From contig CBDCTW010000008.1 in NCBI GenBank assembly GCA_965222425.1, positions 178,248 to 242,247 on the forward strand: 64,000 bases of DNA, in the 5' to 3' direction. Of the stretch, positions 1 to 64,000 are shown in pieces. The position numbers and the translations under genes were made by a program. Below the pieces are notes generated by a model. That model was not told the DNA's origin. It saw nothing but the letters and a program-made list of their open reading frames with translations, and searched no databases. This stretch comes from Candidatus Marinacidobacterales bacterium. GTDB lineage: Bacteria; Acidobacteriota; Vicinamibacteria; Marinacidobacterales; DATDRI01. How positions within the stretch are numbered: position 1 is the stretch's first letter; each line of letters begins with the position of its first letter.

Positions 1-267
1 GCGAAGGACGGGTACGAATCTTTTATCTGGACGGGGAGAAGCACGTCCGAGAGACTCCAAATGGGACGAAGCTCGAGACCATCGCTCATTGGAACGGCAG
101 GCAGATTCTCATCGAGCAAGGAGGCGAAGGACGAGGGAACTATCAATGAGGTGTATGAGCTCGGGTCGGACCCCAACGTACTGGTGGTGATGTTCCGGTT
201 GAAAATTAAGCGGCTCAAAGAGCCCATCGTGATTAAGAGTGTCTACGACGCGGTAACAGACGGCTGA
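1..267 (+). other. 3' end of an upstream gene running off the window edge. Frame 3 is open from base 3 to a TGA at 147-149 (...GRQILIEQGGEGRGNYQ) and frame 1 is open from base 1 to 267. Function unknown, possibly frameshifted.
   Basis: Open reading frames start at the window edge with no start codon. Read by hand only. Confidence 0.2.
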
Positions 268-345
268 GGTTCGAAAAAAGACCCGGGAGATGTCCTCCCA
301 TGTCTTTGCTTATTGGCCAATATTGGGCAAATTGTATGCTGGTAT

Positions 346-1038
346 TCAGAATCGAAACTGAGCGGCCACGTTGGCGGTGAACCCTTCCAGCCGATCGTCG
401 AAGCGACCCGCTGCTCCGATGAACCGATAACCTCCGCCGAAACCGAGGCGAAACTTCTCGGTCACGTTCAACGTAACGTTGACCTCCGGCTCCCATCACC
501 AAGAACGCCTCTTTCACTTCGAGGCGGCTATCGAGATCGATGCCCTCGAATGGAAAGCGTCCTCTCAGCCTCTCGACCAAGTTTCCAAGATTGATATTAC
601 CAGGGTCGAGGTTTCCCGAACCGAAGTTCCCCTGACCGGGAAAACGGCCGCCTAGGAATGGGAGTCCCTCGAGTCGAAACCGATTTAGGGTTGCGGTACC
701 GCCGCCGACGAGACCCCTGACGGAAATATTCGCGACGCGCAAAGGATTGAAGAAGTACTCGAGGACTGCGCCCCCGTACTTCATGTCGGACTCGTTGCCC
801 CGTTGGTTTGAAAATAGGCGGCTCCGCCGATCAAGAACTTCTGATTGATCAGCCATCCTCCGTAAAAGCCGGCTAGGCCGGCGAACTCACCGTCCACCTC
901 GGTGAATTTGTAGTCCGGAGCGATGGGGAAATTGCTCCCGATACCGCCCTGGGTCAGCGTCTGCGTGGTTTGGCCCAGAACGGGACTGGTGAACAGGAGC
1001 ATAAATCCTAGGATTGTGAAGTTAGACTTTCTGAACAT
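346..1038 (-). pseudogene. Outer-membrane beta-barrel protein with a signal peptide (MFRKSNFTILGFMLLFTSPVLG). The reading frame changes twice, near 781-800 and near 490-500.
   Basis: The N-terminal segment (ORF 781..1134) and the C-terminal segment (...NVTLNVTEKFRLGFGGGYRFIGAAGRFDDRLEGFTANVAAQFRF, stop at 346-348) are in the same frame. The middle segment is in the 233..856 frame. The C-terminal aromatic ending is typical of a beta-barrel. Confidence 0.45.
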
Positions 1039-1274
1039 CTCTGCCTCAACTTTCTGTGTAGGGCACCTGGCCGCATTGATTGCTAGCACCTTCGTATTTT
1101 GGCGCCAGATGGCTTCACACAAGTACTGGCTCATTAGCCATCAACTGCCAGAGCATTATCGGTGCCACTGGCACTGCTGTGATTCTACTTTTGAATCAAG
1201 GGCTTCGGGACGATGGTCATGCGATTCTGTCCCTTTGCGGCGACAAGGTGTCTACTTTGGCGGATTCTTTCTCG

Positions 1275-2177
1275 CTATTCGGTAGGAGGTTTGGCGGTGG
1301 GAGCGATCGTGACGAGGTCCAGGGGGTTGACGCGGGCCTTGTTGAGCCGGGCGGACCAATGAAGGTGAGGACCGGTAACCCGCCCCGTCGCGCCCACCCG
1401 TCCTATCACCTCGCCGGGTTTCACGACTTGGCCATTCTTGACCGCCATCGATTCGAGATGGCCGTAGAACGTATAAAGTCCGAGGCCATGGTCGAGCACG
1501 ATGGTGTTCCCGGAAAAGAAGAGGTCGCTGGCCATGACGACGCGACCACGTTGCGGGGCACGCACCGGCGTGCCGGCGGGAGCGGGGAAGTCTTCACCAC
1601 TGTGCGGCGAGCGCGGCTGGTCGTTGAGGATTCGTCTCTTGCCGAAGCTTCCCGATCCTTTGACGCCCTTCACGGGTAGTTGGAAGGCTCCTTCCCAGAG
1701 GCGTGCCGCCGTCACCGCTCGAAAGATCCGCAGGAGTTGGTTGGTTTCTCTTCGCGATCTTTCGAGGTCCTCGGCGCTTAAATCGACGAACTTCTTCTGC
1801 ACCGTAATTTTCTGGACCACGAAGTTCCCGTCCCGAATGGTCACCGGAGTGCTGCAGCCTATCTCTTGACCGTTGCTCCGTTTCGATTCAACGGTAAGCG
1901 GAAGTTGGGAGGCCCTACGGCGGAGATCCACACCTAACAAGGCAAGGTGAGAGTCGCCTTCCTGCCAGAAGTGCAGCGACTGGTCGGCCCAGGTAGCTTT
2001 GACCTCCGCGGGGAATGCACTACGGACTTCGAGGAGGATAATGGCGCCTTGGGGCGGTTCTATCGTGCTCAGCGTCAACTCCAAACCGGCCGCACAGTCG
2101 ATCGTCTCCTCGGTCGAGGAGGACGCGACCGGCGAGGTCAATAGGGCAACGGTGAGCACCGCACATGCGGTTCTCAT
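1275..2177 (-). CDS. M23-family (LytM-like) metallopeptidase with an N-terminal signal peptide.
   Basis: Shows the HSGEDF...GTPVRAP...GNTIVLDHGLGLYTFYGHLESMAVKNGQVVKPGEVIGRVGATGRVTGPHLHW motifs that are typical of the M23 family. ATG at 2175-2177. Confidence 0.8.
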   Translation of the reverse strand: MRTACAVLTVALLTSPVASSSTEETIDCAAGLELTLSTIEPPQGAIILLEVRSAFPAEVKATWADQSLHFWQEGDSHLALLGVDLRRRASQLPLTVESKRSNGQEIGCSTPVTIRDGNFVVQKITVQKKFVDLSAEDLERSRRETNQLLRIFRAVTAARLWEGAFQLPVKGVKGSGSFGKRRILNDQPRSPHSGEDFPAPAGTPVRAPQRGRVVMASDLFFSGNTIVLDHGLGLYTFYGHLESMAVKNGQVVKPGEVIGRVGATGRVTGPHLHWSARLNKARVNPLDLVTIAPTAKPPTE

Positions 2178-2397
2178 TACACCCACACTATATCAATAGT
2201 GAGCGGTATCCCTGAACCAGCAAGCTTTGTCTTGGCGTAGCCGATAAAGATCCTCGAAGGTGCTCGGCAGCGCATCCCACATATGGTGGAAACTCGATGA
2301 TGACACGCATTTGGCGCTCCGTCGAACGCCCGACATTGTCAAATTGAAGCGTCGTCCTTGCTCGATGAGCTAGAATAGGAGGGCAGTTGGACTTCGG

Positions 2398-2472
2398 GGG
2401 CGGTTAGCTCAGTGGGAGAGCGCTTGCCTTACAAGCAAGATGTCACAGGTTCAAATCCTGTACCGCCCACCA
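2398..2472 (+). tRNA. tRNA-Val, anticodon TAC.
   Basis: Cloverleaf folded by hand: acceptor GGGCGGT/ACCGCCC, D arm GCTC-AGTGGGA-GAGC, anticodon arm CTTGC-CTTACAA-GCAAG, T arm ACAGG-TTCAAAT-CCTGT, discriminator A, encoded CCA. Confidence 0.85.
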
Positions 2473-4633
2473 GACCCCACGTAGATTGGCCCCCGTCCGG
2501 CTGTTGTACTTTGCCCCAGCGCCAGCTAGGGAGCTTGGGGCCAGCAACTTTACTGTCGGAATTCGACAAATCGAGAGAGCCATTTCAATGCGGCGCAGCT
2601 TGGCCCGACGGGCTCTGTGTGTCCTCTTGACGCTGGCAGCCTGCAGTCCCTTTGTTTGGGCAAAGGACACCGCCATCGCCGCCATTGATGGGCCCGAGCC
2701 GCCCATGCCCCCCGCGGTGCTGAGCCGTGACACCGAGGGCCGTCTCACGCTGCGGGCCACCCGTCTGGCCGAGCCCATCGTCGTCGACGGCCGCCTCGCG
2801 GAGCTCATCTACCGCCAGGTTCCGTCGATGACGGAGTTCATTCAACAGGAGCCCATCGAGGGCGAGCTCGCGACCGAACAGACGGAAGTCTGGGTCTTTT
2901 TCGATGACGACAACATCCATGTCTCTGCCCGCTGCTGGGACAGCCATCCAGAGAGAATGGTGGCCAACGAAATGCGGAGGGACAACCGGAACATACAAAA
3001 CAACGAGAATTTCGCGGTTATCTTCGACACCTTTTACGACCGGCGCAACGGATTCCTCTTCCACACTAATCCGTTGGGGGCGATCTTCGACGCTCAAGTC
3101 ACTGACGAGAGGATTGTCAATTCGGACTGGAACACCGTGTGGGACGTAAAAACCGGCCGTTGGCAACGTGGTTGGCTGGTGGAGATGAAAATCCCATTCC
3201 GGTCGCTTCGCTATAAAGGCGTCGATACCGAGATTTGGGGGATCAACTTCAGGCGCATCGTGAGGTGGAAGAACGAAACGAGCTATCTGACGCCCGTTGC
3301 CGCCGCCTTCCGCCAAGCTGGTATCGCCAAGCTCTCTCAGGGAGCGACAATGGTAGGTCTCGAGACACCCTCGCAGGCCCTCAACCTCGAGCTCAAACCC
3401 TACGCCATCGCCGCGGCCAACACCGATCTGGAAGCCGACCCCCCGCTCGAGAACGACCTCGACGGCGACGTCGGTTTCGATCTCAAGTACGGAGTCCTCG
3501 TGGCTTGACATTCGACTTCACATTGAACACCGACTTCGCCCAAGTGGAGGCCGACGAGCAGCAGGTGAATTTGACGCGGTTCGGTCTCTTCTTCCCCGAG
3601 AAACGTGATTTTTTCCTCGAGGGTAAGGATATTTTTGCTTTCGGTGGAGTCGGCACGAGGCGAGGGTTCGAACGTGCCGATAACACCCCCATCATGTTTT
3701 TCAGTCGGCAGATCGGGCTCTACGATGAAGAGGTGGTGCCCATCAACGCCGGCGCACGGCTCACCGGCCGCGCGGGAGCCTACACGTTGGGCTTACTGGC
3801 GATTCAGACTGATGAGCTCCCGCAACTGGCGATCCCTAAGACGGATTTCGGTGTTGTGCGCGTGAAACGAGACGTGCTTCGCCGCAGCAACATTGGATTC
3901 ATCGGCACGTACCGGTCACCCGTTTTCGAAGCCAACGACACGAACGATTCGAACCAATTGTTTGGCATCGACGGAAACTTCACCTTTTACCAGAACGTGA
4001 ACGTTAGCGCCTACTACGCGCGAAGCGAAACAACCGGTTTGAGTGGGGATAACGCCAGTTATCGCGGCCGCTTCCACTATGGAGGCGATTTATGGGCTTT
4101 CGAGGTCGAGCACTTGGTGGTGGAGGAGAATTTCAACCCTGAGATCGGTTTTTTACGCCGGGAAGACATTGAGCAAAGTTTCGCGGAGCTGCGCTTCAAT
4201 CCCCGCCCACAATGGAGTGACGCGATACGGAAGTTCACTGTCAAAGGGAATTTCGACTACATCAATAATCGCGATGGGCAGCTCGAGTCGCGACGGGCCA
4301 ACTTCTCGTTCGGTATCGATTTCGAGAGCGGTGATCGCTTCTTCAGTTCGTATACCCGGAACTTCGAGTTCTTGGATGAAGAGTTCGACATCACCGATGA
4401 CGTGATCATTCCCTTTGGCGAGTACCGATTCAACCGCTACGAGGCTGGGTACCGATTCGGCCCACAGCGGAGGGTGTCTGGCTTGATCGGCCTAGAGAGG
4501 GGGACCTTCTACAGTGGCGATCGGACCGAGTTGTTCTACTTCGGCCGGTGGGAGCTGACCAAACAGCTGTCCCTCGAGCCTAGTGAACCGCCCCGGGTTT
4601 CCCGGAGACTCCAACTCTTGAGAGGATGGAGTC

Positions 4634-5868
<1,235 letters not shown>

Positions 5869-6203
5869 AACAGTCTCCGGAAAACCCGGGGCGGTTCACT
5901 AGGCTTTCCCTCAATTGGGTCGACTTGCCCGAAGGCAGCTTCACCACCAATCTGGTTCGGTTGTGGGTCAACTACATGATCTCGCCGCGTATCTTCTTGG
6001 GCGCACTGGTGCAGTACAATTCAAGCGACAATCTGGCCGCAACCAACATCCGCTTTCGCTGGGAGTATCAGCCGGGGAGTGACTTCTTTGTCGTGTACAG
6101 CGACGGAAGAGACGCGCTTCTGCTCGATGATAGAGGATTGCCGCGGCTAGAGACACGCTCCTTGGTCATCAAGTTCACACGATTCTTCCGGTTCTAGCCC
6201 GAT

Positions 6204-7041
6204 CTAAAACGTCTGGTAGTAGCCGACGTTAAGTATGGGACCCGCCGGCCAGCTTCGCCCGCGGACGCTGACGGGCACCGTGAACTCGATACTCTGCGTG
6301 GGGGAGATCGCGAAGATCACTCCTGGTTCTACGTAAATTATCTCTCGTCGCAGCGTTGCAATGGAGAGCCCGAGCTCGTGGCGTCGAAGCCGTAGAGCCC
6401 GCGAACGAGTCCCTTGAACATGACGGGATCCATCGATAGCCGCCCTCGAAGCTCCAAAAGATCTCGTCTCCCGGATCGATGCCGTTTTCCTCGTTCTCGG
6501 TTCGGAAACGGTAACTTAATTTGCCGTTGACGTAGCCCGGTCGTGGCCACAGAGAGCGGCCCACCTCGACATCGACTTCGAAGTCGTATCGTCCTTCACC
6601 CACGGGCACGATCTCGGCATCGTTGACGAACTCACCGGTAGGAAATTTGACGGCGGCTCCAACTGTGGCAACGACCGTATCCTGAACGAAGTTCCAGTGC
6701 GCCCCTGCTCTGACATCTCCGATTCCGGTGGAGCTTCGGTCGTCGGCGAGATCATCGAATCGGATGTTGTAGACAGGCAGTGGGGCCAGGGCCTCGAAGC
6801 CGGCACCGAGCCCAAGTCGATACTCGAAAAACGCGGCGGTGACTTCGCTTTGTCCGTCGAAGAAATAGGGGATTCTCTCGCCGTCTAGGAAGTAACGCTC
6901 GTCGGTGTTCTGATAGGCGAAGCCGATGGGGGACCAGCTCACGCCTTTGGGATAGACCCACGCGCCCGCGTAGGCCGGCTGTGCCGCGCCAATGAGTGCT
7001 GCGGCCGCCAGAGCTAACGCGGGCAGGAGACGAGACTTCAT
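6204..7041 (-). pseudogene. Outer-membrane beta-barrel protein with a signal peptide (MKSRLLPALALAAAALIGAAQPAYA). The C-terminal third can only be read through two further frame changes.
   Basis: Frame A reads ...EIFWSFEGGYRW, frame B reads DPVMFKGLVRGLYGFDATSS, and frame C reads ...IIYVEPGVIFAISPTQSIEFTVPVSVRGRSWPAGPILNVGYYQTF ending at stop 6204-6206. The track ORF 6229..7209 ends in an Arg-rich out-of-frame tail. Confidence 0.45.
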
Positions 7042-7334
7042 CTCGAGATGCCCCGATACTTGCCGTCCTGCCTTCTCATTATCAAGAACTACCTCGAGGC
7101 CTGAGAAAAGTGTCGGAAATCTAACAGCCCGGTGAGCCCAACTGCGGCAACTATAGTAGTAGTATCGGAGGAAGGGACCCATAGTACCATGATTCGCAGC
7201 CATCCTCACCGTAACTCTGTGCGGCGCCGGTTTCCTTTCCTCAACGCCAACGACGTACCGTGAATGGCGAGGTCCAGTTTCGAGGTCTCTAAGTAGGCAG
7301 AAATAGTGTACGATCCGACCTATCTCCGAAAATC

Positions 7335-8393
7335 ATGGCCAAGCAGCGCGTCGCGGTTTTGTACGATATCTGGTGGGACGATGACGATGCGCCGCCAGAG
7401 AAGCCGCGCAGCGGCAAACCGCGCAGCGGCAAACCGCGCAAACGTGAGAAGGAAGTTCACGAAGAGGTGTACGCCACTCTCAAGAAGCTAGGCTACCAAC
7501 CTTTCTATTGTGTTCTGGACGGCGAGCCCACATCGCTCGCCAAATTAGCCTCGTCCGAGGCGGCGCTCATTTTCAATCTTACCGAGTCCTACGCCGGCGA
7601 CGACACCAAAGACATGCACATTGCCGCGTTTTTGGACCTGATGAGAAAGAAGTACACCGGAGGGGGTCCTCACGCCTTGCATCTGGCCCAGGACAAGACA
7701 CTAGCGAAAAAGCTTCTTTCGTTTCACGGCATTCGGACTCCTTATTTCGTAGTTTCCTATCGGGGCAAGACCGATTGGGCCGATGATATTTCATTTCCTT
7801 TGATCGTGAAGCCTCAGGCCGAGGACGGCTCCATCGGGATCGACGCCGGTTCGGTGGTCACGAGCGTCAAAGAGCTGATGCAGCGGATCGACTACATTCA
7901 CACCCGCTTCGACAGCCCCGCCTTGATCGAAGAGTACATCGAAGGCCGCGAGATTTATGTAGGCGTGGTAGGGAACGAAAGGCCAGAAGCCCTGCCGTTG
8001 GTCGAGCTGGACCTTTCTCGGGTTCCCGGCGATGTGCCGAAGATCGCGGGTACCGAAGTCAAATGGTTGAAGGAGACCAAACTCTATAAAGTCACCGAGG
8101 CTTTCATGCCCGACGATCTTCCGGTTGAGACGGAGAAGTTTCTAAAGGAGACCGCGGTGGCGGCGTACCAGGCATTGAAGTGTCGTGACTACGGTCGGGT
8201 CGATATTCGACTGGCCAAGGACGGCACGGTGTACGTTCTCGAAGTGAACCCCAACCCATGGCTCGCTTCGTTCACCGAGTTCTCGATGGCCTGGCGAGGC
8301 ACCGGGCGCACGTATCCGCAGCTCATTCAATACATCGTGGATATGGCTTTCGCCCGGTACGCGCAGCCCGCGCCGGTGCAAGCTCCAGAGTGA
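7335..8393 (+). CDS. D-alanine--D-alanine ligase-like ATP-grasp family protein.
   Basis: ATP-grasp motifs: ...FPLIVKPQAEDGSIGI...EEYIEGREIYVGVVG...GRVDIRLAKDGTVYVLEVNPNP.... N-terminal low-complexity region with PRSGKPRSGKPR. Confidence 0.65.
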   Translation: MAKQRVAVLYDIWWDDDDAPPEKPRSGKPRSGKPRKREKEVHEEVYATLKKLGYQPFYCVLDGEPTSLAKLASSEAALIFNLTESYAGDDTKDMHIAAFLDLMRKKYTGGGPHALHLAQDKTLAKKLLSFHGIRTPYFVVSYRGKTDWADDISFPLIVKPQAEDGSIGIDAGSVVTSVKELMQRIDYIHTRFDSPALIEEYIEGREIYVGVVGNERPEALPLVELDLSRVPGDVPKIAGTEVKWLKETKLYKVTEAFMPDDLPVETEKFLKETAVAAYQALKCRDYGRVDIRLAKDGTVYVLEVNPNPWLASFTEFSMAWRGTGRTYPQLIQYIVDMAFARYAQPAPVQAPE

Positions 8394-8415
8394 TCGGTTT
8401 ACTGATACAGGAGCA

Positions 8416-9381
8416 CTAGCTAAGCGACATCGCCGGATCCCCGAACAGGTGATAAATGCTGAGGAGCTCGAGGTAGCCACCGGACTCGGCAAACTTCGAC
8501 TGCGCGGCGAGGATGGCGTCTCCGAGAGTCGTGTGTCCTCCGTGTAAGAGCTCGGTGAGCAAGAGACGGTGATAGAAGTGAGCGGGTCTATCGAGACTCT
8601 CTCCACTGGGGGAAAAAGCAGCGATGATGCCCTTGCCGTCCGCCTTCAAGAGCGTCTCCGATAAGGAATCGTAAGTCGGGAACTGGAAGTAGCCGTTCAA
8701 GCAGTTCATGGTGAGAAGCAAGGGGTATTGCGCGGGATAGTCCAAAGACTCCACGTGGTCGGTGCGCAAGATGTTCTCGGACCACAAATTTATAGCACCG
8801 TGACCGATGTAGCTGACCAACGAAGCCCCCTCGCCGAAAGCATTGAGAATGGCGTCGTGAGTGGCGGCGGTCCCCAGGTCGTCGAGATAGATCTTGTGAA
8901 CGTCGTTGCCTGAGAGAACCGTGGCGGCTAACTCTTCGGCATGGGCCTCGAAGTCCCCGGCTCTTGGGTCGGGCCGGTCGGCAATGAGCACCGCCCGACC
9001 ATGAAGTCCCATACTTTCCGTTTCATAAGCGACGATCTTGTTCACCATGGCCTGGGCTTCTTCGAGATTGGCGGCCGGGAGTCTTCCAATCGTGAGGTCG
9101 GGCAGCAAGTCGTCCCCGTTGACCGCGGCATAGGCGGGGTCGGAAGCGGTCCAGAGGTAGTTGGTGTTCAACGGATACGGGGGTACCTGGTTTTGGACAC
9201 CCCATCCGAAGTAGTCCTTGAAGTCGAACGTTGCGTCCCCGAGGAGCAAGACGTATCGAGGAGGAGTCCTCCAGTGATGGTATGCGTGCTCGAGGAAGCC
9301 CCGTATCGCTTCAGGCCGGGTCTCGCCATGACCGAACTCGGAGTAGATCTGCTCGATGGGAACGGCGAGTGGGGTGAGACC
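8416..9381 (-). pseudogene. Peptidase C25 (gingipain-like) family gene, truncated at its 5' end.
   Basis: ...PLAVPIEQIYSEFGHGETRPEAIRGFLEHAYHHWRTPPRYVLLLGDATFDF...HGAINLW...LLLTMNCLNGYF. The frame is open upstream only to a TAA at 9382-9384, and the sequence beyond that is unrelated. Confidence 0.55.
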
Positions 9382-9467
9382 TTATGGGGAGGGCGGGACG
9401 CCTTTGTCAACCCAACTCCTTCGCAGGTAGGGCCTTGCGGGAGGGGTGGGCGAGAGGCAGGCAGGCA

Positions 9468-10848: not shown

Positions 10849-10850
10849 CT

Positions 10851-52478: not shown

Positions 52479-53713
<1,235 letters not shown>

Positions 53714-53743
53714 AACAGTCTCCGGAAAACCCGGGGCGGTTCA

Positions 53744-54380: not shown

Positions 54381-54488
54381 ATTGGAATGGGAGTGTTGTC
54401 ATTGAAGCGAATTGCTAAGTTCCAATTGGTGCTACGAGTTATAGGTGCTTATATTGGAGTGGGAGTGTTGTCAATGAAGCGAATCGCT
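54381..54488 (+). repeat. Two 36-bp direct repeats spaced 72 bp apart, covering the region just upstream of and into the start of the peroxiredoxin gene.
   Basis: ATTGGAATGGGAGTGTTGTCATTGAAGCGAATTGCT at 54381-54416 and ATTGGAGTGGGAGTGTTGTCAATGAAGCGAATCGCT at 54453-54488. The second copy contains the ATG (MKRIAGWAL...). Confidence 0.6.
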
Positions 54489-55001
54489 GGCTGGGCTCTT
54501 GGTGTGATGTTTATCGGAGGCTCCCTGGGTGCTGCCGAACTACAGGTTGGCGACGAGGCACCCGACTTCGAGCTCCAAGGCACCGACGGAAAGTCCTACC
54601 GGCTCTCCGAGCTAAGGGGCAAGGCTGTGGTCCTTGCGTGGTTTCCGAAAGCGTTTACCGGTGGTTGAACGGCCGAATGCAAGTCGCTCCGTGAGAGCGG
54701 CGACGAAATCCGTGCTTTTGCGGTCAACTACTTCGCCGCGAGCTGTGACACGGTCAAGACTAACAAGGAATTCGCCGAATCTCTCTCTCTCGACTATCCG
54801 ATCCTGAGCGATCCCGACAAAGGCGTCGCGAAGTCCTATGGGGTCGTAACGGCGAAGCGTGAATTGCCGCACCGCTGGACTTACTATGTCGACGCCGAAG
54901 GCAAGATCCTCTACATCGACAGAAGCGTCAACACGCACAGCGCGGGAGCGGATGTCGCGGCGCGATTGAAGAGGCTCGGGGTGCCGGCCTTGAGCAAGTA
55001 A
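54474..55001 (+). CDS. Peroxiredoxin (AhpC/TSA, Bcp/PrxQ-like) with an in-frame TGA at the catalytic cysteine codon. Candidate selenocysteine peroxiredoxin, or alternatively a nonsense mutant.
   Basis: [64 protein letters not shown]-[TGA at 54666-54668][86 protein letters not shown]...ALSK*. The frame is continuous on both sides of the TGA. It fits the Pxxx(T/S)xxC motif with the C position occupied by TGA. Confidence 0.6.
54683..54704 (+). promoter_or_regulatory. Hairpin 14 nt downstream of the in-frame TGA. Candidate bacterial SECIS-like element.
   Basis: GTCGCTC-CGTGA-GAGCG(G)CGAC. Stem of 5 plus 4 bp with a one-nucleotide bulge and a 5-nt apical loop. Position and size are compatible with bacterial SECIS elements, which lie about 11-40 nt after UGA. 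Confidence 0.3.
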
Positions 55002-55018
55002 GACCGGCGAGAGCCTCC

Positions 55019-55462
55019 TGTGCCTTCTATTTATTCATCCGCGCGCCCAGAACTTGATTGATCTCCGGTCTGTCGGCACCATGCCTGCATGGTTTCGTCG
55101 TTCGTTCGCGCTCTCATCTCTGCCTTCAAGGTTCGTCGCGAGCTAGCTCTTGAGAATGTCGCTTTTCGGCAGCAGCTCGCCGTCCTCCGTCGTTCGGTGA
55201 AACGGACGCGGCTCTCGAATGTCGACCGCGGGTTTTGGGTGCTGTTGCGCAGAATCTGGACTTACTGGGAGGGATGTGTCCCGAGGTTCGTGGAAAAAGA
55301 ACGACGCGCCCGTCCTGTGCCAAAACTCGGCCCTTTTGAAATAGCCCACAAATCAGCAGCTTAGACGCCCTTGGAATCCGGGCAAAATCCAGGGTATTTC
55401 GCGCCGCAGGGCTGACTTCCGACACCCATGAGCTGGCGGATGAATAAATAGAAGGCACAGGC
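55019..55462 (+). repeat. Nested IS debris. A 5' fragment of a family-E IS lies at 55019 to about 55267 and includes 62 N-terminal transposase codons. The left inverted repeat of IS256-family G lies at 55268-55310. A 145-bp chimeric MITE-like unit lies at 55318-55462, with an ISx-type end at one side and a family-E-type end at the other.
   Basis: CCTGTGCCTTCTATTTATTCATCCGC... at 55019. GGGATGTGTCCCGAGGTTCGTGGAAAAAGAACG is the reverse complement of the flank at 57520-57555. The MITE-like unit reads TGTGCCAAAACTCGGCCCTTTTGAAATAGCCCACAAATCAGCAGCTTAGACGCCC...GGATGAATAAATAGAAGGCACAGG. Confidence 0.55.
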
Positions 55463-55503
55463 ACGAGGATTACGGGGCACTCGCGCTGGACGCCAAGGTA
55501 GAG

Positions 55504-56681
55504 ATGATCCGTTCGTTGGTCCCCCTTGGTCTAATGCACGTTCACGAGTTGCTCGACGACGAAGTGAAGGCGTTGGCGGGAGAGCGATCCTCTCGCAAGG
55601 ACGAGCTGGAGCGCGGTCGCCGTCCCGGAAGCAACCCGGGCACGGTAGGGCTTGGCGGCCAGCGGGTACCGATCCGTGTGCCACGGGTTCGGAGCATCGA
55701 GGGAGGAGAGATTCCGCTTCGCTGCTACGAGGCGTTGAGCCACGGCGGTGAGGTGAATGATCTTCTGCTGAAACGAGTTCTGTACGGAATCTCTTGTTGC
55801 AACTACGAGGCGGCAGCGGAAGCGATTCCGGGCGCCATCGGGCTGTCGAGCTCAACGGTGTCCCGAGGGTTCGTGCAAGCGAGCGCTGCGAAGCTGCGGG
55901 AGATGCAGGAACGGGATCTGACCGGCGAGGATGTGGTGGCGCTGTTTCTGGATGGGAAGACATTCGCCGAGGCAACGATGGTCGTGGCTCTGGGCATCAC
56001 GCTTTGCGGGGAAAAACGCTTCTTGGGCTTCGTGGAGACGGACACGGAGAACGCGCAGGTGTTGACGCCGTTCCTGCGTTCACTGCTCGAGCGGGGACTC
56101 GATATCTCCCAGGGTCTGCTGGTGATCATCGACGGCGGCAAGGGTCTCCAGGCGGCAGTCAAGAAGGCATTCCGTAACGGGCCCTGATACAACGCTGCCA
56201 GTGGCACAAACGTGAAAACGTAGTGAGCTACCTGTCCAAGGGCGAGCAGGCGTCATGGCGCAAGCGGCTCCAGTGGGCCTACAACAGGCCGGAGTACGAA
56301 GAGGCCCTCACTGCGCTCGAGCAACTCCACGGTGAGTTAGAAGAGCGGAACCAATCCGCAGCTGGCAGCCTGGAGGAAGGCCTCGAGGAGACGCTGACGT
56401 TGCATCGACTCGGCGTGCACGCGGTGCTGGGCCGTTCGTTCAAGACGACGAACTGCCTTGAGTCCGTCAATGCTCTCGTCGAGGAACGCTGCGCGAAGGT
56501 CGACCACTGGAAGAACTCGAGCCAACGCCAGCGCTGGTTGGCAACGGCGCTCGTAGACATCGAACCGCGCTTGAGGAAGGTGGTGGGCTACCGCCATCTT
56601 CCCAAGCTTCGCGAAGCTCTCAAGCGGGAACTGAAGATCGAGGCGAAGACATCAACCGTATCGAAGAAGAAGGTCGCTTAA
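55504..56681 (+). pseudogene. IS256-family transposase, family H, with a frameshift between the second and third catalytic regions.
   Basis: Frame 1 ends ...VIIDGGKGLQAAVKKAFRNGP*. The conserved continuation LIQRCQWHKRENVVSYLSKGEQ... is in another frame (ORF 56223..56681). Confidence 0.65.
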
Positions 56682-56730
56682 ACGTGAGCCGTGGAGAGTT
56701 TCAACTAAGAATGGGCTTGACTCGAGCGCG

Positions 56731-57513
56731 GTGTCTCGCGTGGTTAGCTGGCTGAAGGAGCGCTTCGAGGAATGGCAGAACCGTGCTCTCAGCGAGGAGG
56801 TCTACGCGATCGTTTACCTGGACGGCTTCCACCTGAAAGTGCGGATGGCGAAACGTGTGATCAGCGTACCCGTACTGGTCGCGCTCGGGGTCGCGCCAGA
56901 CGGGCACAAACGTCTGTTGTCATTGCGTCTGGCGGTGAGCGAAGCCTCGACGCGTTGGGGCTCCGTGCTGGAGGGACTCCAGGCTCGAGGACTCCGGGCT
57001 CCCAAGCTAGTGATCAGCGACGGCCACAAGGGGCTGACGAAAGTGCTGGAGAAGTGGCCGGGGTGCCGGTTGCAGCGATGTACCGAGCACAAGCGCGCCG
57101 ACTTGCTCGAACATTGCCCGGCGCACGCACGCCGTGAGCTCCGGCGTGACTACAACCGGATCGTCTGCGCCAAGAACGGGATCGATGCTCGCAAAGCCTA
57201 TGACGAGCTCGTCGCCAAGTGGACGCCTCTCGCGCCGGCCGTCGTCCGAAGCCTAGAGGAGGCCGGTAATCAGCTGCTGACCTTCTACGAATTCCCTCGT
57301 GCCATGTGGAAATCGATTCGAACGACCCATGCTCTGGAGAATCTCAACCGCGAGTTTCGACGCCGGACGAAAACCCAAGCGTCGTTCTCCAGCGAGGAGT
57401 CCGCGGTCGCTTTGCTGTTTGGGCTTATCGCCTCTGGCCAGATTCAACTACGACGCATCGACGGCTACCAACGTCTGAGCGAGGTTCTCGAACACGCGAA
57501 GGTTGCCGCCTGA
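56731..57513 (+). pseudogene. IS256-family transposase, family G, with the N-terminus truncated or displaced. It starts about 25 aa before the first catalytic Asp. The right inverted repeat lies at about 57520-57555.
   Basis: ...VYLDGFHLKVRMA...LVISDGHKGLTKVLEKWPGCRLQRCTEHKRADLLEH.... The C-terminus is near-identical to the fragment at 50145-50476. Confidence 0.65.
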
Positions 57514-57577
57514 TATGATACTCTGATGACGGAGTGGAGGGCGCCGCTCTTTTTCCACGGACCTCGGGACACATCCA

Positions 57578-59107
57578 ATGTCGTCGACGAAGAGACTCGG
57601 GCCGTTGTTTGGTGTGATCGCCTTGAGTCTGGCGCTCAATCTGACGGCGGTCTGGTGGGGTTTGCCGTCCCGCTACGGCTGGGCTCCCGACGAGCTGCAC
57701 CCCTCCGTCGTCCTTGAGGGGATCGACGTACGGTTCTCCGGCGACTGGCACCAACCGGCGTACCCGCCGTTCCACTATTACCTCCTCGCCCTTTCCTACC
57801 TTCCAGTGCTCGCTCTCGACCTCGTCGAGCCTCAATCCATCTCCGGTCACACGATGCTCTTCTATCTCGGACGCACCATCTCCCTGGCGATGGGTGTTGG
57901 TATTCTCGTTCTCGTCCATCGAATCGGGCGGGTCGTTTTCGACGAGAAGACGGGACTGTTCTCCGCTCTCGGTGTCGCACTCACGGCACCGTTTATCTAT
58001 TACTCGAAGACCGCCAACCTCGATGTGCCCCTCTCTTTCTGGGTGGTCCTGTCTCTCTACTTCTTCCTTCGTCTGCTCGAAGCGGAGAGTCTACGGGCTC
58101 ATTTGCTCTTCACGCTCGCGGTGGTAGTTGCGATGCTGACGAAGGATCAGGCCTTCGCCTTTTACGTTTTGCCACTCGGTTTCTACGCACTGTGCCGATT
58201 GCGCCTTACGCGCTCGTTTCGTGCGACGTTCCTCGACCGTCGCGTCATCATGTCACTGGCAGTCGGAACTGCGACCTTCCTGACCCTGCACAACGTCGTC
58301 TTCAATTTCCAAGGCTTCGTCAACCACTTCGAGGAGATCTTGTGGGCGCGCGGCCACTACAGCACTTTCGAGCATACGCCATCGCAGCAAGTGGCCCTCC
58401 TCGGCCAGACGCTGCTTCACTTGAAGTTCTCCCTGGGATGGCCGCTCGCTGTCACCTGTGGACTCGGGGTCGTCCTTTCGCTGAAAGCCTGGAGGACGAA
58501 CTCACGACCACTTTGGATTCTGGCTTTCGCGAGCTCCTATTACCTCTTCTTCGTCGCTCCAGTCCTCAGTAGCTGGCTGCGCTACGCGCTACCGCTCGCA
58601 ATACTTCTCGCTCCTTTCACGGGTCACGCTCTGGCGGAGCTGGTTCGGGGTGGGGTTCTCGGAAAGGTAGTTGCCGGTGTCATGCTTTTCTACTCGCTCT
58701 GGTATGCGGCCTCCGTCGACCTGCTGCTACTCGGCGACTCGCGCTACGGCGTCGAACGGTGGCTAGCGCAAAACGTGCCCGAGGACGCCGTGGTGGGCTA
58801 TGTCGGACCTGAGTACTACCTTCCGAGATTGGACGCTTTCGAGGCGAAGCGCTTGCGGCCGACCGAATCCGTGCTCGAGCGGGAGTCGCCGGCGTTTCTA
58901 ATTGTCAACCGAGCCTATAGCGAGCGCTTCGCGCCAGGATCCCGCGAGGGCGAGCTGTTTTCCCGCCTGCGTGCTGGCAAGACGGGCTACGGGCTCGCGT
59001 TGCGTCATCAATCGCGGCCGCGCGGAGTCCTGCTCCATTTCGAAGGAGTCCTGGCCAACTTGGACAAGCTCGACCCCATCATCGAAGTCTATCAGAAGCT
59101 GGATTGA
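57578..59107 (+). CDS. Membrane glycosyltransferase of the GT39/PMT_2 (ArnT-like) family.
   Basis: Multi-pass membrane N-terminal domain with ...IYYSKTANLDVP...LTKDQAFAFYVLPLG.... ATG at 57578, about 20 bp after the IS256-G right end. Confidence 0.65.
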   Translation: MSSTKRLGPLFGVIALSLALNLTAVWWGLPSRYGWAPDELHPSVVLEGIDVRFSGDWHQPAYPPFHYYLLALSYLPVLALDLVEPQSISGHTMLFYLGRTISLAMGVGILVLVHRIGRVVFDEKTGLFSALGVALTAPFIYYSKTANLDVPLSFWVVLSLYFFLRLLEAESLRAHLLFTLAVVVAMLTKDQAFAFYVLPLGFYALCRLRLTRSFRATFLDRRVIMSLAVGTATFLTLHNVVFNFQGFVNHFEEILWARGHYSTFEHTPSQQVALLGQTLLHLKFSLGWPLAVTCGLGVVLSLKAWRTNSRPLWILAFASSYYLFFVAPVLSSWLRYALPLAILLAPFTGHALAELVRGGVLGKVVAGVMLFYSLWYAASVDLLLLGDSRYGVERWLAQNVPEDAVVGYVGPEYYLPRLDAFEAKRLRPTESVLERESPAFLIVNRAYSERFAPGSREGELFSRLRAGKTGYGLALRHQSRPRGVLLHFEGVLANLDKLDPIIEVYQKLD

Positions 59108-59221
59108 TGCTCCTGGAGTAGGGGCAGGTCTTTTCTCCGCCCTCCGATGCCCCGCGATCGCGTGAGGCCAAAATACTCATGTGGCTTCCCGATGGTAGAA
59201 ACGTAGCAGCCCGCCAAGCCC

Positions 59222-59360
59222 GTCCTGTGCCAAAACTCGGCCCTTTTGAAATAGACCATAGATCAGCAGCTTAGTGTCTGTGTTTGCGACCGGGCCAAGG
59301 GCCGTAGGCTTTACAATCGTCTGGCCCGAGGGTGTTATCTTCAGATCCATGATGACGTAC
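59222..59360 (+). repeat. Solo 5' fragment of ISx, about 140 bp, reaching to the transposase start codon region.
   Basis: GTCCTGTGCCAAAACTCGGCCCTTTTGAAATAGACCATAGATCAGCAGCTTAGTGTCTGTGTTTGCGACCGGGCCAAGGGCCGTAGGCTTTACAATCGTCTGGCCCGAGGGTGTTATCTTCAGATCCATGATGACGTACCA. Confidence 0.7.
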
Positions 59361-59416
59361 CACGTGAAGTCTCCTCGGGAAACTTCTAGACCCGGCGAGC
59401 TGGTTCGCACACCGCC

Positions 59417-60482
59417 ATGAGTAGCTTGATGAAAGCCGTCCGCTGTCACCGCTACGTCGGTCTCGACGACCAGGGGCGACCCCTGGCGACTCCGGCTTCG
59501 CTCCGAGAGGCCCTCTCGTTGGACGAGATTCCGCCACCGGCCTGCGAACCGGGGCAAGTGTTGGTTCAAACTCGGTATGCCGGTGTGCAGTATCCGGATG
59601 CCCTGCAGGCGCAGGGCCTTTACCAGCAGCGGCCACGGCTTCCGTATGTGCCAGGGATGGACGTGTCGGGCATGGTCCTGGAGCTAGGCGATGGTGTCGA
59701 CGGGTTGGCGGTGGGCGACGAGGTCTTCGCGCAAATGAGCGTGGGCGGTTTGGCCGAGGTCGCCGCTGCGCCGGCGTCGTCGGTCTGGCCGGCGCCGACC
59801 GGGGTCCCCCTGTCTGCGTGTGCGAATCTGGGGCGAAACTTCTTTCCAGCCTACTACTCCTTGAAGATTCTCGGTGAGGTCACGGCAGGAGATCTGGTGT
59901 TGGTCGATGGAGCGTCCGGGGGGGTGGGGATGGCGGCGGTGGAGCTGGCGAAGGCGATGGGTGCATCAGTGATCGCTGGCGTCAGCGTCCCGGACAAGAA
60001 GGAGTTTGCGACCGCCGCTGGCGCCGACCGAGTGCTCTGCTACGGTCGAGACGGGCGACAGTTACCGCACGTTCAAGACGGAGGTGAAGCAAGCGGCCAC
60101 CGAGCTCGGCCACTCGGAGGGCGTCGACGTCGTGATCGACATGGTGCAGGGAGAGCTCTTCGAGGCGGCGCTCATGTCGGTGATCCGACCGCTCGGACGG
60201 ATCTGTCTCGTCGGCTTCACTGCGGGACAGAAGCCGATCCGCCCTGGGTTGTTACTCATCAAGGAAGCGGCTGTCATCGGGAGTCTCTGGAGTGGATGGG
60301 CTGGTCGCCATCTGCGCGAGCATCAACAGAACGTGGCGGAGATCATCGACTTTCTGGCGACCGGCCGGGTCCAGCCGCGTGTCGACCAGGTGTTTCCGCT
60401 CGAGAGTTTTCTCGAGGCGTTCGAGCTGTTCGAAAACAACCGTGGGCGGGGGAACACGGTCGTCAGCTTCGCTGAATCCTGA
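59417..60482 (+). pseudogene. Zinc-type alcohol dehydrogenase or NADPH:quinone oxidoreductase (MDR family), frameshifted near 60040-60060.
   Basis: ORF 59417.. reads ...GASGGVGMAAVELAKAMGASVIAGV...GADRVLCYGRDG and then an out-of-frame Arg-rich tail. ORF 60006..60482 carries the in-frame C-terminus (...VDVVIDMVQGELFEAALMSVIRPLGRICLVGFTAGQ...NRGRGNTVVSF). Confidence 0.6.
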
Positions 60483-60930
60483 CGCCGCGCGACCCCAGTG
60501 GAGGTGGGATAGCTAGTCGCAGGGCGTCAGCACACGCGGGCGTCGACGCCGAAACGCCGGTAGTTGTGATACATGGCCGTGGCCATCAAGCGGTTGTCGC
60601 CGGTCGCTTAGGCCTCTCTCATCTCGACGGGGACCCACACCCCCCAGCCGCTTGTCGAGCGCATAGCTAATCGCGAAGTTGACATCGATCCTCCGGTTGT
60701 CCCGCTCCAGCTCGGCCCCGCGCCGACATGTGTCCAGTCTCCGCCACCGTATTCCCCTCTCATGGCAGTTCTAAACCGCGCAATCGACGCTGGATCGACT
60801 TCTTGCGGAGCACAGCCGCGCACGCGTCGTGTCCGAAAAAGCGAATGGGACACTTCTCCCTTCATCGTAGGGTGCTCCGAATAAATAGCGGAAAAAAATA
60901 GGTTATAACCTACATAAGACGGATCGGTTA

Positions 60931-61061
60931 GGTGCTTCCGCAGTCAAGTGTTGGCGGTCGCCGCGTAACCTGTTCGCGTGCTAGAGTTTAACCTGATTTC
61001 GAGAGGCGCAGTTCTTTCGTCGATGCCGGCTGGGCCGAGTTTTGGCACAGGACGGGGACCC
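60931..61061 (+). repeat. Diverged partial copy of the 170-bp MITE-like repeat at 60931 to about 60960. It is followed by a solo ISx terminus (GGGCCGAGTTTTGGCACAGGACGGGG) at about 61031-61061.
   Basis: GGTGCTTCCGCAGTCAAGTGTTGGCGGTCG... and CCGAGTTTTGGCACAGGACGGGG. Confidence 0.5.
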
Positions 61062-61099
61062 TCGATATTTGGCGGTTTCAGCTCGCCACCGCCGAGCGG

Positions 61100-63041
61100 A
61101 TGCCGGTGACGTCCGATCGCGGCATCGAGATTCGCCCGCTGCCGCTAGATGAGCAGTCACTGGTGTTCCTCTCTAAGGGTCGGGGGGGGACCGGACCGGC
61201 TCGTCTACTCCAATCGAGAGACAGGCTCGGAGCGCACGCTCCGAACACAGTCGATCATGTCCCAGACCCACCCGGGCCTGAGCCCCGACGGGAAGACACT
61301 TGCGGTGAACTGGCCGAGCCCTGACGGCTACGACCTCTACCTCGTCGACTGGAACGACGATGACGCCATTCGTCTCAACGCGCGCTCGGGTCTTCCGATC
61401 TCCCCGGCGTTCAGCCACGACGGTAAAACGGTGTACTTCGTGGAAGCGAACGATGAGCTCGAGTTTGAGCTATTCGCCGTTCCGGCCACGGGGGGGAAGG
61501 CGAAGCGAGTTCCGATTCGGTCGTGGGACTGGGGCGTGCCCACTGGGCGCGTCGTCATCCGAACGACGCGTGCGGAAAGCGCGTCCCCGTTGCCGGCGCG
61601 CCTTCATGTCACGGACGCCAACGGTCACCCCGCGCTTCCGGCCAGCTCGAGCATGCCTCACTTCGATGGTGTACACGGCAAGGTTTACTTCTACTCGCCC
61701 GGCGTCGTCAGCGTCGAAGTACCGGCGGGCGAGGTGCGTATCGAGGCAAGCCACGGTTTTTCGGCAAAGACCATCACACGGACGGTACAGGTCGAGCCGG
61801 GCTCGATGGCACCGGTGGATTTACCGTTCGAGTTTCTGTGGGAACCGCGCCAGGACGGCTGGTACTCCGCAGACCACCACTACCATATGAACTACGGGGG
61901 GCCATACCGCTTGGCGCCCGAGGACCTCCTGCTTCCTCTCCAAGCCGAGGACGTCGACGTCGGGACGCCGCTCATGGCGAATCTCCACCACCGCTTTAAT
62001 GATCTCGAACACTTCGAGTATCGCCGAATCGAAGTGCTCCCCTTCCTGACTTTCGGGCAGGAAGTGCGCTCTCACCTGCTCGGACATCTCGGGCTCATCG
62101 GCATCGTAGAGCCCCACTGGCCCTGGTACTGGGGCCCGGACTACCCGGTCTACGGACAGGACGATCGACCCAACCATGACGTGCTTCGTTTCGCTCGAAA
62201 ACAGGGAGGTGTCACCAGCTACATGCATCCCGTTTCGCGCTCCGAACCGTTCCATGACGAGGAGGCGATGAGAGCGATTCCCATCAACTTGATTCCGGAC
62301 GCGGTTCTAGGCGATCTCGATACCCTTGAGCTGGCATGTCTCTGGATCAGCGAGCTGGGAACCCACGACGTCTGGTACCGCTTCCTCAACGTGGGTGCTC
62401 CTGTCGCTGCTTCCGCAGGCACGGACATCATGGCGGACTACTACCGAACCATGGCCGTAGGCGCGACGCGAGTGTACGTACGGGTCGATGAGCCGATGAC
62501 GTTCGAGCGCTACCTACACGCGCTCAAGCAGGGACGAAGCTTCGTCAGCACCGGTCCGCTCGTGGACTTTCGCGTCGGCGAAAGTGCGCCTGGCGACGTG
62601 ATCGACGGTGACGGCGGCTTGGGGGCCTGGAGCTTGCGACTTTCGACGCCCATGCCCGTCGAGAAAGTCGAACTCATCGTGAACGGCAAGGTGGTTCACG
62701 CCGAAGCCGGGCCCGAAACACCTAGTGAAAAGCGCTACTCTGGAACCGTGCCGATACCTTCCGGTGGCTGGATCGCGATCCGTGTTCATGGAGGCGCGGA
62801 GCAATGGCCGGGGATGAACGGCTACCCGTTCGCCCACAGCTCTCCGATCTGGATCGGTGAGCGGGGAAGCACCGACCCCTCCGCGGCGCGTCGGTCGGCC
62901 GCGGAGCTTCTCGCGGCGCTCGATGTCGCGGAGCGCCGGCTCGATGAGGGGTATGGTTCGACGCCGATCCCGCGACTGAAAGCGCGTTTTCGCGACGCTC
63001 GCAAGTTTCTAGAAGGCTTGGCCGAAGGTGCGGCGCGGTAA
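61100..63041 (+). pseudogene. TolB-like beta-propeller fused to a CehA/McbA-family (PHP-like) metallohydrolase domain. The N-terminus is truncated by an IS end and there is a frameshift in a G8 run at 61182-61189.
   Basis: Frame a reads ...PLDEQSLVFLSKGRGG. Frame b reads (G)PDRLVYSNRETGSERTL...SPDGKTLAVNW.... The C-terminal domain reads ...WYSADHHYHMNYGGPYR.... Confidence 0.55.
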
Positions 63042-63089
63042 TTTTTAGGACACGACGCGGAAGACAAGCCGTAGCCATGGTAGCTTGGC

Positions 63090-63335
63090 GTGGATCTGAT
63101 CATGGGTTTAGACTGCCAGCGATCGGCTCAAGTGGGCAAGCCCATGGCGATGTTTCTAGCGGGAGTGGCGGCAGGTGTTGTACTCGGCGCAGCGCTGAGG
63201 TGGCGCGGACTGGTGGTGCTGGCAGTGGTCGGAATCGCTCTCCTTCTGGCGACCATGTCTGGGATCGACCTGGCTGTGCTGTGGGCCCAACTCGGCAAGT
63301 ATGGGGCCACACTCACGGACTCTTTGACGCCGTAG
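63090..63335 (+). CDS. Small hydrophobic protein (81 aa) of unknown function.
   Basis: Two predicted transmembrane helices, ...MFLAGVAAGVVLGAALRWRGLVVLAVVGIALLLATMSGIDLAVLWAQL.... No other support. Confidence 0.2.
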   Translation: MDLIMGLDCQRSAQVGKPMAMFLAGVAAGVVLGAALRWRGLVVLAVVGIALLLATMSGIDLAVLWAQLGKYGATLTDSLTP

Positions 63336-63389
63336 GTGAACGAGCCCGCGATGAGCGGCCGTTGCATGTCGGACGGGAGGATTCTAGCT

Positions 63390-63795
63390 TCCATTGGCGA
63401 ACCAAGCGTAGACACATCTAATTCGAAACGTCCCGGCGCGCGTGTCTTGAGTTCGTTTGTGTTTTTGGACACGACGCGGTAGCTCGGACCGGCGCAATGC
63501 GTCGCATCGCTGGGCGACATTCGTGCGGAATCACGCAAAAGCGGTCGTCGCTGCGGATTTCTTCAACGTCGTCCTGTGCCAAAACTCGGCCCTTTTGAAA
63601 TAGACCACAAATCAGCAACTTAGACGCCCTTGGAATCCGCGCAGAATCGAGGGTATTTCGCGCCGCAGGGCTGGCTTCTGACCCCTGGGCTGCGGGTGGC
63701 GAGCGACAGGCCCACCGGGCGTGCGCACGGCTGGCTCAAATCGGCTGCGGGGCGAGCTACGGGCAGTGAATTTCGAACCCGGAAGTCCCTCATTA
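63390..63795 (+). repeat. IS debris at the end of the window. A family-D-like end fragment lies at about 63390-63478 and a 215-bp F-type repeat at 63578-63795.
   Basis: ...GAAACGTCCCGGCGCGCGTGTCTTGAGTTCGTTTGTGTTTTTGGACACGACGCG. The F-type repeat TGTGCCAAAACTCGGCCCTTTTGAAATAGACCACAAATCAGCAACTTAGACGCCCTTGGAATCCGCGCAGAATCGAGGG... aligns to 19992-20211. Confidence 0.55.
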
Positions 63796-64000
63796 GACTG
63801 GACTTTATCGAGCACAAGAGCGAACGTTCGGTGATGCCGCAGGATACAGGGGTTGGCCGGAACGTCGGTTTGGACGGTTTGGACTTCGCCAGCTTACGGC
63901 GGGTCTGGGAGCAGACCTTTGGGGCTACTCCTCCAAGCTCGCTCTCGCGCGTTTTCCTGCGCCGTGTTCTCTTGCACGAACGCCAGTGCCGGACCCATGA

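Follow-up and report, generated by a model that had tools for sequence, protein, structure and literature searches.

Insertion sequence (IS) expansion accompanied by gene decay has been described in several host-associated bacteria. In Sodalis pierantonius SOPE, an intracellular symbiont of the insect Sitophilus oryzae, a recent IS expansion was accompanied by rearrangements, duplications, and deletions; pseudogenes make up nearly half of the genes, and the remaining ones are under relaxed selection (PMC3914690). Transposases account for 28-31% of the coding sequences in the anglerfish symbionts (PMC6020299), and Shigella represents IS-driven decay in a host-adapted pathogen (PMC7373316). Here we analyzed a 64,000-nucleotide stretch of the contig CBDCTW010000008.1 (forward-strand positions 178,248 to 242,247 of assembly GCA_965222425.1), hereafter the window, which an original prediction based on the letters alone had described as either a piece of a genome undergoing IS expansion and pseudogenisation or an unpolished assembly. 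The obtained results make it highly probable that the window is a typical chromosome piece under ongoing IS expansion in an uncultured marine member of the Acidobacteriota (Vicinamibacteria, 'Candidatus Marinacidobacterales'). The pattern is a known kind of IS expansion with pseudogenisation, and the mechanism itself is not new.

The window has a G+C content of 59%. Host genes and ISs were called by comparing the longest non-overlapping open reading frames (ORFs) with Pfam, and transposases were further compared with NCBIfam. Nine transposase types could be distinguished by these searches, namely IS3 (two copies), IS5, three IS256 types, three IS481-like rve types, and an IS66 fragment, which confirms the predicted minimum of nine. 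The elements and their fragments sum to 18.4 kb, or 29% of the window, and in an independent repeat count across 1.4 Mb of related genomes, 18.5 kb of the window occurred there in three or more copies; the predicted figure of about 20 kb is therefore borne out. Typical bacterial genomes consist of ISs to at most a few percent, and the load of the window is thus far beyond this range. Self-comparison by BLAST revealed many dispersed repeats, including a direct pair of 1317 bp (4582-5898 and 52427-53743, 99.0% identical) and an inverted pair of 1401 bp (21413-22813 and 39261-40661, 99.4% identical). The nesting and clustering of ISs also proved real: the remnant of another rve-type transposase (43679-43944, plus strand) is interrupted by the element IS481-like-2 at the junction 43944/43945, and six IS types and fragments are piled up in the region 50082-57576, namely IS256-C, IS481-like-1, an end of IS481-like-3, IS3, an IS3-like remnant, an IS481-like-2 fragment, IS256-B, and a second portion of IS256-C. 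Eleven of the ~39 host genes (about 28%) are disrupted, against a prediction of about a dozen.

The window was compared with metagenome contigs of the long-read style that belong to three further ENA analyses and to other samples; they were retrieved by exact-protein match and are 99.1-99.9% identical to it in host DNA. Contig L077 aligns to positions 1-15857 at 99.7-99.9% identity with zero gaps over 15.9 kb, L075 to positions 20616-33836 at 99.6-99.8%, L080 to positions 33951-50205, and L082 to positions 55015-60897. The positions of IS copies differ between these strains. L075 is devoid of the IS256-A copy found at 21413 in the window, with an 8-bp overlap that marks a precise empty site. 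L080 has an empty site in place of the IS256-A copy at 39262 and carries the element instead within the TonB-dependent receptor gene, at window positions 38768-38775, whereas L077 has an extra IS256-family element with a 431-amino-acid (aa) Transposase_mut gene at approximately window position 4500. The precise empty sites in independent contigs confirm the 8-bp target site duplication (TSD) of IS256-A, and such empty or alternative sites in contigs with 99.1-99.9% identical host DNA (L075, L077, and L080) indicate that the elements are still active.

The same alignments bear on the possibility that uncorrected long-read errors account for the frameshifts and stops, in which case the disruptions would not be biological. 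Such an artefact would agree with one frameshift in a G8 run that is G7 in an intact relative, with a second frame change that adjoins C8/A8 runs, and with the low coverage labels of the related contigs. However, independent assemblies reproduce the window without gaps over stretches of 4.5, 11.4, 7.7, and 4.8 kb, the DUF5916 and outer-membrane protein (OMP) frameshifts included, and ~27 kb of the longest alignments are gap-free. L077 shares the DUF5916 frameshift at 3495-3510, which had correctly been placed in ordinary sequence, as well as both frameshifts of the MetA-like OMP gene, the truncated C25 peptidase gene, and the split membrane-protein gene; the extra G of the qor pseudogene recurs in L082. 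Over ~57 kb of alignment, 17 indel events were counted against ~220 substitutions, which makes indels ~13 times rarer, and most of them lie outside long homopolymers. These few and mostly non-homopolymeric indels point to accurate assemblies of slightly different strains, contrary to the suggestion of an unpolished assembly. Moreover, most of the disruption consists of IS insertions with TSDs, deletions, and truncations, which read errors cannot make. Based on the TSDs, the empty and alternative sites, and the lesions common to independent assemblies, we concluded that the damage is biological; a sequencing or assembly artefact is extremely unlikely.

To place this load in a genomic context, the IS256-A transposase was used in a tblastn scan of one genome per species. 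The scan gave 160 matches, the best 80 of which correspond to 71 loci, all in four long-read 'Candidatus Marinacidobacterales bacterium' metagenome-assembled genomes (MAGs; Acidobacteriota, Vicinamibacteria); the window is not among the 71. The four MAGs hold at least 92 distinct full-length IS256-A copies that are 99.1-99.6% identical to the window copy, and 78 of these are spread across the 2.4- and 3.15-Mb contigs of MAG CBDANW01. In 1.06 Mb of flanks sampled around 56 IS256-A copies of CBDANW01, 32% of the sequence is repeated at least five times, and within 8 kb of the sampled IS the repeat fraction stays at ~0.3, with values of 0.24-0.27 at a distance of 8-10 kb. At the protein level, matches to the transposases of the window make up 21% of the window itself, and in the sampled flanks 20% for CBDANW01, 11-13% for two other MAGs, and 0% for OZ245365. 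At loci L003, L006, L011, L053, L069, and L070, the latter genome (6.3 Mb) has IS256-A copies with at least 99% identity to those of the window, and none of the other transposases of the window was found in the 118 kb around them; either IS256-A arrived there recently by transfer, or the lineage has remained IS-poor. Our literature search found no paper naming 'Marinacidobacter*' and nothing relevant on IS-rich sponge or marine Acidobacteriota.

High IS density beyond one locus is thus found in the closest IS-rich relative, CBDANW01. A local hot spot or genomic island within an otherwise ordinary genome would explain why ISs are clustered and nested at 50082-57576. It would also be compatible with the negative result for OZ245365, and the density figures outside the window come from relatives rather than from the source genome. 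On the other hand, the 56 CBDANW01 regions, located on two megabase-sized contigs, show the same families at the same density (20% transposase-coding, ~30% repeat) with only a slight drop away from IS256-A, the strain-level contigs retrieved via host genes are likewise IS-rich, and the host genes of the window serve ordinary housekeeping and envelope functions and are not island cargo. A hot spot is accordingly very unlikely, and the window is typical of an IS-laden genome type with a lineage-specific load. The comparison with close relatives recommended in the original prediction therefore yielded both a relative whose IS load matches that of the window and independent contigs with the same lesions, and the proposed IS expansion with pseudogenisation was upheld by the TSDs, the empty and alternative sites, the common lesions, and this comparable load.

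Several observations weigh against this interpretation. The IS copies differ from each other by 0.4-0.9%, and the burst was therefore not instantaneous. Relaxed purifying selection, which had been named as a possible cause, was not seen on the remaining genes: 23 intact genes compared between the window and the independent contigs show 66 synonymous and 38 non-synonymous differences, a ratio of non-synonymous to synonymous polymorphism (pN/pS) of ~0.19 that comes from a small sample at the strain level. Where frame changes coincide with 7-8-nt homopolymers (at 61182-61189 and possibly at 12079-12105), they could be systematic consensus errors. The genome-wide figures describe close relatives and carry a sampling bias, since the regions were chosen by their IS256-A copies. 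The comparison contigs have low coverage labels (1x-20x), and the junctions at 15857-20616, 33836-33951, 50205-55015, and beyond 60897, all located in repeats, have no support from any independent contig.

These junctions bear on a possible mosaic, in which the elements and lesions would be real and the linear order of the window would partly reflect assembler joins of co-occurring strains at IS copies. The independent contigs diverge from the window exclusively within repeats, single samples have several 99%-identical host segments in more than one context (for example, lgt in L073 vs L076 and in L074 vs L075), and the low coverage labels fit as well. Nevertheless, the ISs of 1.1-1.4 kb are probably short relative to long accurate reads, no internal inconsistency, for instance half of a target duplication, was seen at the full-length copies, and real IS-mediated rearrangement among strains explains the different contexts equally well. 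We consider a mosaic improbable and retain ongoing IS expansion as the preferred explanation. The low pN/pS indicates that purifying selection is still acting on the remaining genes, and the data show that ISs proliferate and that dispensable genes are being lost, whereas selection has not collapsed in general. As a hypothesis, recent host restriction may have caused the expansion.

The obtained alignments revealed two further segments with an unusual history. The segment 31726-33836, which contains lgt and a chalcone-isomerase-like gene, is found at 99.1-99.6% identity in at least two IS-flanked contexts in single metagenome samples and a MAG (L058 and L073-L076), and homology stops at IS remnants; the multiple contexts reflect either strain rearrangement or intragenomic duplication. 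A 1.7-kb tract of the TonB-dependent receptor gene (36978-38656) is 2.3% diverged from L080, with the flanking DNA up to 100% identical (38768-39261 and 40662-41298), and by its sequence seems to have been imported by recombination from a less closely related lineage. A diversity-generating mechanism in this receptor was considered and rejected, as the 32 synonymous vs 9 non-synonymous differences correspond to ordinary purifying selection in a recombined tract.

Among the individual elements, the two IS3 copies at 4584-5898 (copy a, plus strand; orfA 4634-4954 and orfB 4951-5868) and 52429-53743 (copy b, plus strand) are 99.0% identical and sit in the DUF5916 gene and in a minus-strand membrane/Zn-ribbon gene, respectively. 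Their transposase scored 303.8 bits with the NCBIfam IS3 model (cutoff 160) and contains the Pfam domains HTH_Tnp_1 and rve. Copy a is flanked by the 4-bp TSD CTAG (4580-4583 and 5899-5902), and copy b by AAG (52426-52428 and 53744-53746); the termini are of the TG...CA type with terminal inverted repeats (TIRs; ends TGAACCGCCCCGGGTTT...). Both copies contain an ALIL pseudoknot (4912-5028 and 52757-52873; Rfam RF01497, 95 bits), which indicates that the orfA/orfB split represents programmed -1 frameshifting, the normal mode of expression, rather than damage. The frameshift signal, the rve domain, the TG...CA ends, and the 3-4-bp TSDs together assign the element to the IS3 family. The IS5-family element (15139-16225, plus strand) encodes an intact 349-aa transposase of the DDE_Tnp_1 type and is assigned by a score of 238.7 bits with NCBIfam NF033579 (cutoff 140) and by its TIR TGCCTTGGTGCACAACTC. 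No clear TSD was seen at the window copy, and 11 full-length copies at 97.5-98% identity are present in the MAG loci.

IS256-A is a 1400-bp element with imperfect TIRs (ends GGTGATGTCTTAAGATTCCTGTCAAA and GGTCAAGTCTTAATTTTCCTGTCAAA), represented by copy a at 21413-22812 (plus strand; 436-aa transposase at 21451-22761; 8-bp TSD GAGGTATG) and by the 99.4% identical copy b at 39262-40661 (minus strand; 8-bp TSD TAGCGAAC), which lies ~170 bp upstream of the TonB-dependent receptor start. The Mutator-type DDE transposase scored 293 bits with NCBIfam NF033543 (cutoff 150) and 258 bits with Pfam Transposase_mut, and the length, the TIRs, and the 8-bp TSDs at both copies are those of the IS256 family. 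IS256-B (~55444-56634, plus strand, with an approximate right boundary) has its transposase in two frames (55504-56184 and 56178-56678), and contig L082 differs in this region through local indels. The adjacent IS256-C (56635-57576, plus strand) is 5'-truncated and covers positions 92-334 of the 338-position transposase profile. A 404-bp 3' fragment of IS256-C (50082-50485, minus strand), which is inverted relative to 57173-57576 and 98% identical to it, abuts the start of a SpoIIE gene.

The three remaining autonomous types encode rve transposases as single ORFs of 339-381 aa between long TIRs. IS481-like-1 is full length at 50478-51909 (plus strand), with a 381-aa transposase (50533-51678) and ~100-bp inverted termini, and self-BLAST identified its 833-bp internal-deletion derivative at 16249-17081 (minus strand), which retains both termini. 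IS481-like-2 (43945-45200, plus strand) encodes a 339-aa transposase (44017-45036); its 5' fragment at 55017-55271 is followed by an IS481-type terminus at 55309-55443 (both plus strand). IS481-like-3 (26306-27657, minus strand) has TIRs and a 371-aa transposase (26467-27582) with 100 bits for the NCBIfam IS481 model and 83 bits for IS3. As the three transposases scored only 83-100 bits against the IS481 equivalog cutoff of 224, with similar scores for IS3, and remain below both cutoffs, we named them IS481-like rve elements rather than IS481 members. No consistent target duplication was found for them at the window copies or at 14 copies of the miniature inverted-repeat transposable element (MITE) described below. 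The ninth type is the C-terminal half of an IS66-family transposase (29743-30626, minus strand), followed by ~113-bp tandem repeat units. It matches positions 154-282 of 284 in Pfam DDE_Tnp_IS66 and positions 228-383 of 387 in the NCBIfam IS66 model (130.8 bits vs a cutoff of 180), and neither of the IS66 accessory genes TnpA and TnpB was found beside it.

Termini of the IS481 type are also scattered through the window on their own. Solo IS481-like-1 termini are located at 29502-29585 and, directly upstream of qor, at 59219-59372 (both plus strand), and a terminus fragment lies at 60931-61052 (minus strand). Two members of a second repeat family at 19985-20301 and 63566-64000 (both plus strand; the latter continues past the window end) are related to 55309-55443; the repeat at 19985-20301 has the 55-nt terminus of the elements above together with a different interior. 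A 33-nt terminus, GTCCTGTGCCAAAACTCGGCCCTTTTGAAATAG, is common to IS481-like-1, this second repeat family, and a MITE of ~315 bp, and occurs in the window at 16253, 17078, 25550, 29505, 50481, 51906, 55312, 59222, and 63571. In the 1.4 Mb of related genomes, the IS481-type terminus was found 256 times, with ~1 occurrence per 5 kb in CBDANW01, and 29 convergent pairs spaced 296-316 bp apart define the MITE.

The disrupted host genes show several kinds of lesions. At the left end of the window, an OMP-like ORF (3-1134, minus strand) is split in at least two frames, with the same split in L077; it has no Pfam match, and its outer-membrane identity is putative. The DUF5916 pseudogene (2486-6207, plus strand) combines the frameshift near 3495-3510 with the insertion of IS3 copy a, and L077 has both of these lesions. 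Excision of this copy together with one CTAG restores the frame, which then runs on for ~100 codons to the natural end ...FTRFFRF*. The gene for a MetA-pathway-like OMP (5990-7209, minus strand) has two frameshifts in its 3' third, ends with ...NVGYYQTF* in the third frame, and is identical in L077. A C25 peptidase gene (8416-9381, minus strand) has lost its 5' end and encodes 277 aa from the first start or 321 aa from stop to stop, covering positions 24-374 of the 374-position Pfam profile, vs mostly 436-500 aa for homologues on long contigs; the truncation is also present in L077 and L085. The membrane-protein gene at 11648-12225 (minus strand) is in two frames near the C8/A8 runs at 12079-12105, with the same sequence in L077 and L085. 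A 242-aa 'intact' version from L085 was rejected as evidence of an intact gene, since a one-base difference in a 1x contig joins two ORFs in the wrong frame.

Two genes are truncated precisely at IS tips. kefB (27763-29501, minus strand) has lost its start and first 81 codons in a 267-bp deletion that begins exactly at the outer tip of the solo IS481-like terminus (29501/29502), and the gene is intact (662 aa) in L075. Likewise, the TolB-CehA metallohydrolase gene (61053-63041, plus strand) lacks 487 bp of 5' coding sequence relative to homologues of 812-824 aa, and its truncation begins exactly at the outer tip of the IS481-type terminus (61052/61053). These positions suggest IS-mediated adjacent deletions. 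The already truncated TolB-CehA gene also has G8 at 61182-61189 vs G7 in an intact 824-aa relative, and this is the only frameshift demonstrably within an 8-nt homopolymer. The prediction that some frameshifts sit in such runs thus holds for TolB-CehA but probably not for the membrane-protein gene, in which the frame change seems to lie just upstream of the C8/A8 runs.

Other genes carry small lesions or survive as remnants. The membrane/Zn-ribbon gene (52111-53996, minus strand) has a further frameshift in addition to IS3 copy b. The qor pseudogene (59417-60475, plus strand) has an extra G at 60053 (GGG vs GG in a relative), and qor in the MAG locus L027 is without this G but cut by an IS end. 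The ispH (LytB) copy (41450-42388, minus strand) has a TAA at codon 7 (42368-42370). In L080 most of ispH is missing with the deletion of window positions 41299-42490, L078 and L079 retain a 140-aa stub, and in L081 one copy is split and a second, 99% identical copy is intact (315 aa). The different damage to qor and ispH in each lineage indicates that dispensable genes are decaying independently. An HpnN-like MMPL transporter remnant (41161-41361, plus strand) is a 66-codon stop-to-stop ORF, the last 55 codons of which (41197-41361) align to a full 767-aa gene in L081.

The MMPL remnant, the ispH paralogue, and a squalene/phytoene synthase gene are adjacent at 41161-43701, with only the synthase intact, and look like a hopanoid-type cluster. 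Outside the 11 pseudogenes counted, a 313-aa DUF1501 protein (18501-19442, plus strand) matches its 390-position profile only with its C-terminal part (positions 244-376) and may have undergone an internal in-frame deletion.

Taken together, the elements and lesions are consistent with the following scenario. Autonomous elements with intact transposases, namely IS256-A, IS3 (with its -1 frameshift signal), IS5, and the three IS481-like rve elements, would multiply, presumably by the transposition chemistry known for each family, and the ~315-bp non-autonomous derivative of one IS481-like element would spread along with them. Genes would be lost by direct insertion, as in the DUF5916 and membrane-protein genes, by deletions starting exactly at an IS terminus, as in kefB and TolB-CehA, and by point lesions in genes that may no longer be needed, such as qor, the ispH paralogue, and the OMP genes. 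Recombination between copies would scramble gene order and thereby account for the loss of synteny with relatives at IS ends. That ISs caused the deletions beside them is deduced rather than observed, as is any ecological cause of the expansion.

A separate observation concerns the PrxQ/BCP peroxiredoxin gene at 54477-55001 (plus strand), in which an in-frame TGA (54666-54668) occupies the position of the invariant peroxidatic Cys (WFPKAFTGG[C]TAECKSLRE). In Cys-containing homologues the aligned residue is the catalytic Cys, the ORF is otherwise fully conserved, and the TGA is also present in the related MAG loci L045 and L047. Judged by this alignment, the gene may encode a candidate selenoprotein rather than carry a nonsense mutation. 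A 7-bp hairpin starts 17 nt past the UGA, in a fold no better than that of shuffled sequence, and tRNA-Sec was not found in the 1.6 Mb sampled. An intact partner-switching module (45249-50067, minus strand) comprises a HAMP-SpoIIE (PP2C) phosphatase, an RsbW-like kinase, and two STAS proteins. The two STAS genes are 73% identical at the DNA level and lie on either side of a 272-aa OMP-like gene, and the promoter side of the module now adjoins the IS256-C fragment. An intact tRNA-Val (TAC) gene is located at 2398-2472 (plus strand) between an M23 peptidase gene and the DUF5916 pseudogene.

More tentatively, and as a possibility that we do not favor over its negation, the source genome could consist of ~20-30% IS over a ~6-Mb chromosome like that of CBDANW01, with OZ245365 as an IS-poor sister holding a few IS256-A copies. 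This pair might capture the onset of a lifestyle shift, such as marine host association, with genes lost mostly through IS-terminus deletions under still effective selection. If true, the genome would rank with the most IS-dense ones described from bacteria and would be the first of this kind in the Acidobacteriota. For annotation, the broken genes of the window should be treated as genuine pseudogenes and IS insertions instead of being 'corrected' for supposed assembly errors. The results flag a little-studied marine Acidobacteriota lineage with an IS load that rivals classic cases of early genome decay. The near-identical strains and the IS-poor relative in public data form a natural system for timing an IS burst, and the same data could apportion gene loss among insertion, IS-adjacent deletion, and recombination.

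Compared with the systems described above, the lineage of the window resembles SOPE in its large genome with many pseudogenes, in the recent spread of a few IS families, in the rearrangements, duplications, and deletions mediated by ISs, and in the existence of an IS-poor close relative for comparison. It differs from this gammaproteobacterial symbiont in belonging to the Acidobacteriota and in having ~28% of the window genes broken with a pN/pS of ~0.19 on the intact genes. The anglerfish symbionts resemble it in their massive transposon expansion (here, ~21% of bases under transposase-coding matches), their many pseudogenes, and an ongoing process with lineage-specific timing; in contrast to their genomes, which are reduced by about half, the relatives analyzed here have 6-9 Mb. 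Shigella-type lineages, unlike the present one, have been cultured and their ecology is known, and IS loads in such pathogens are several-fold below the ~20-30% found here. The likeness to Shigella lies in a few IS families that rose in copy number in bursts, in genes inactivated by insertion, in deletions flanked by ISs, and in insertion polymorphism among strains.

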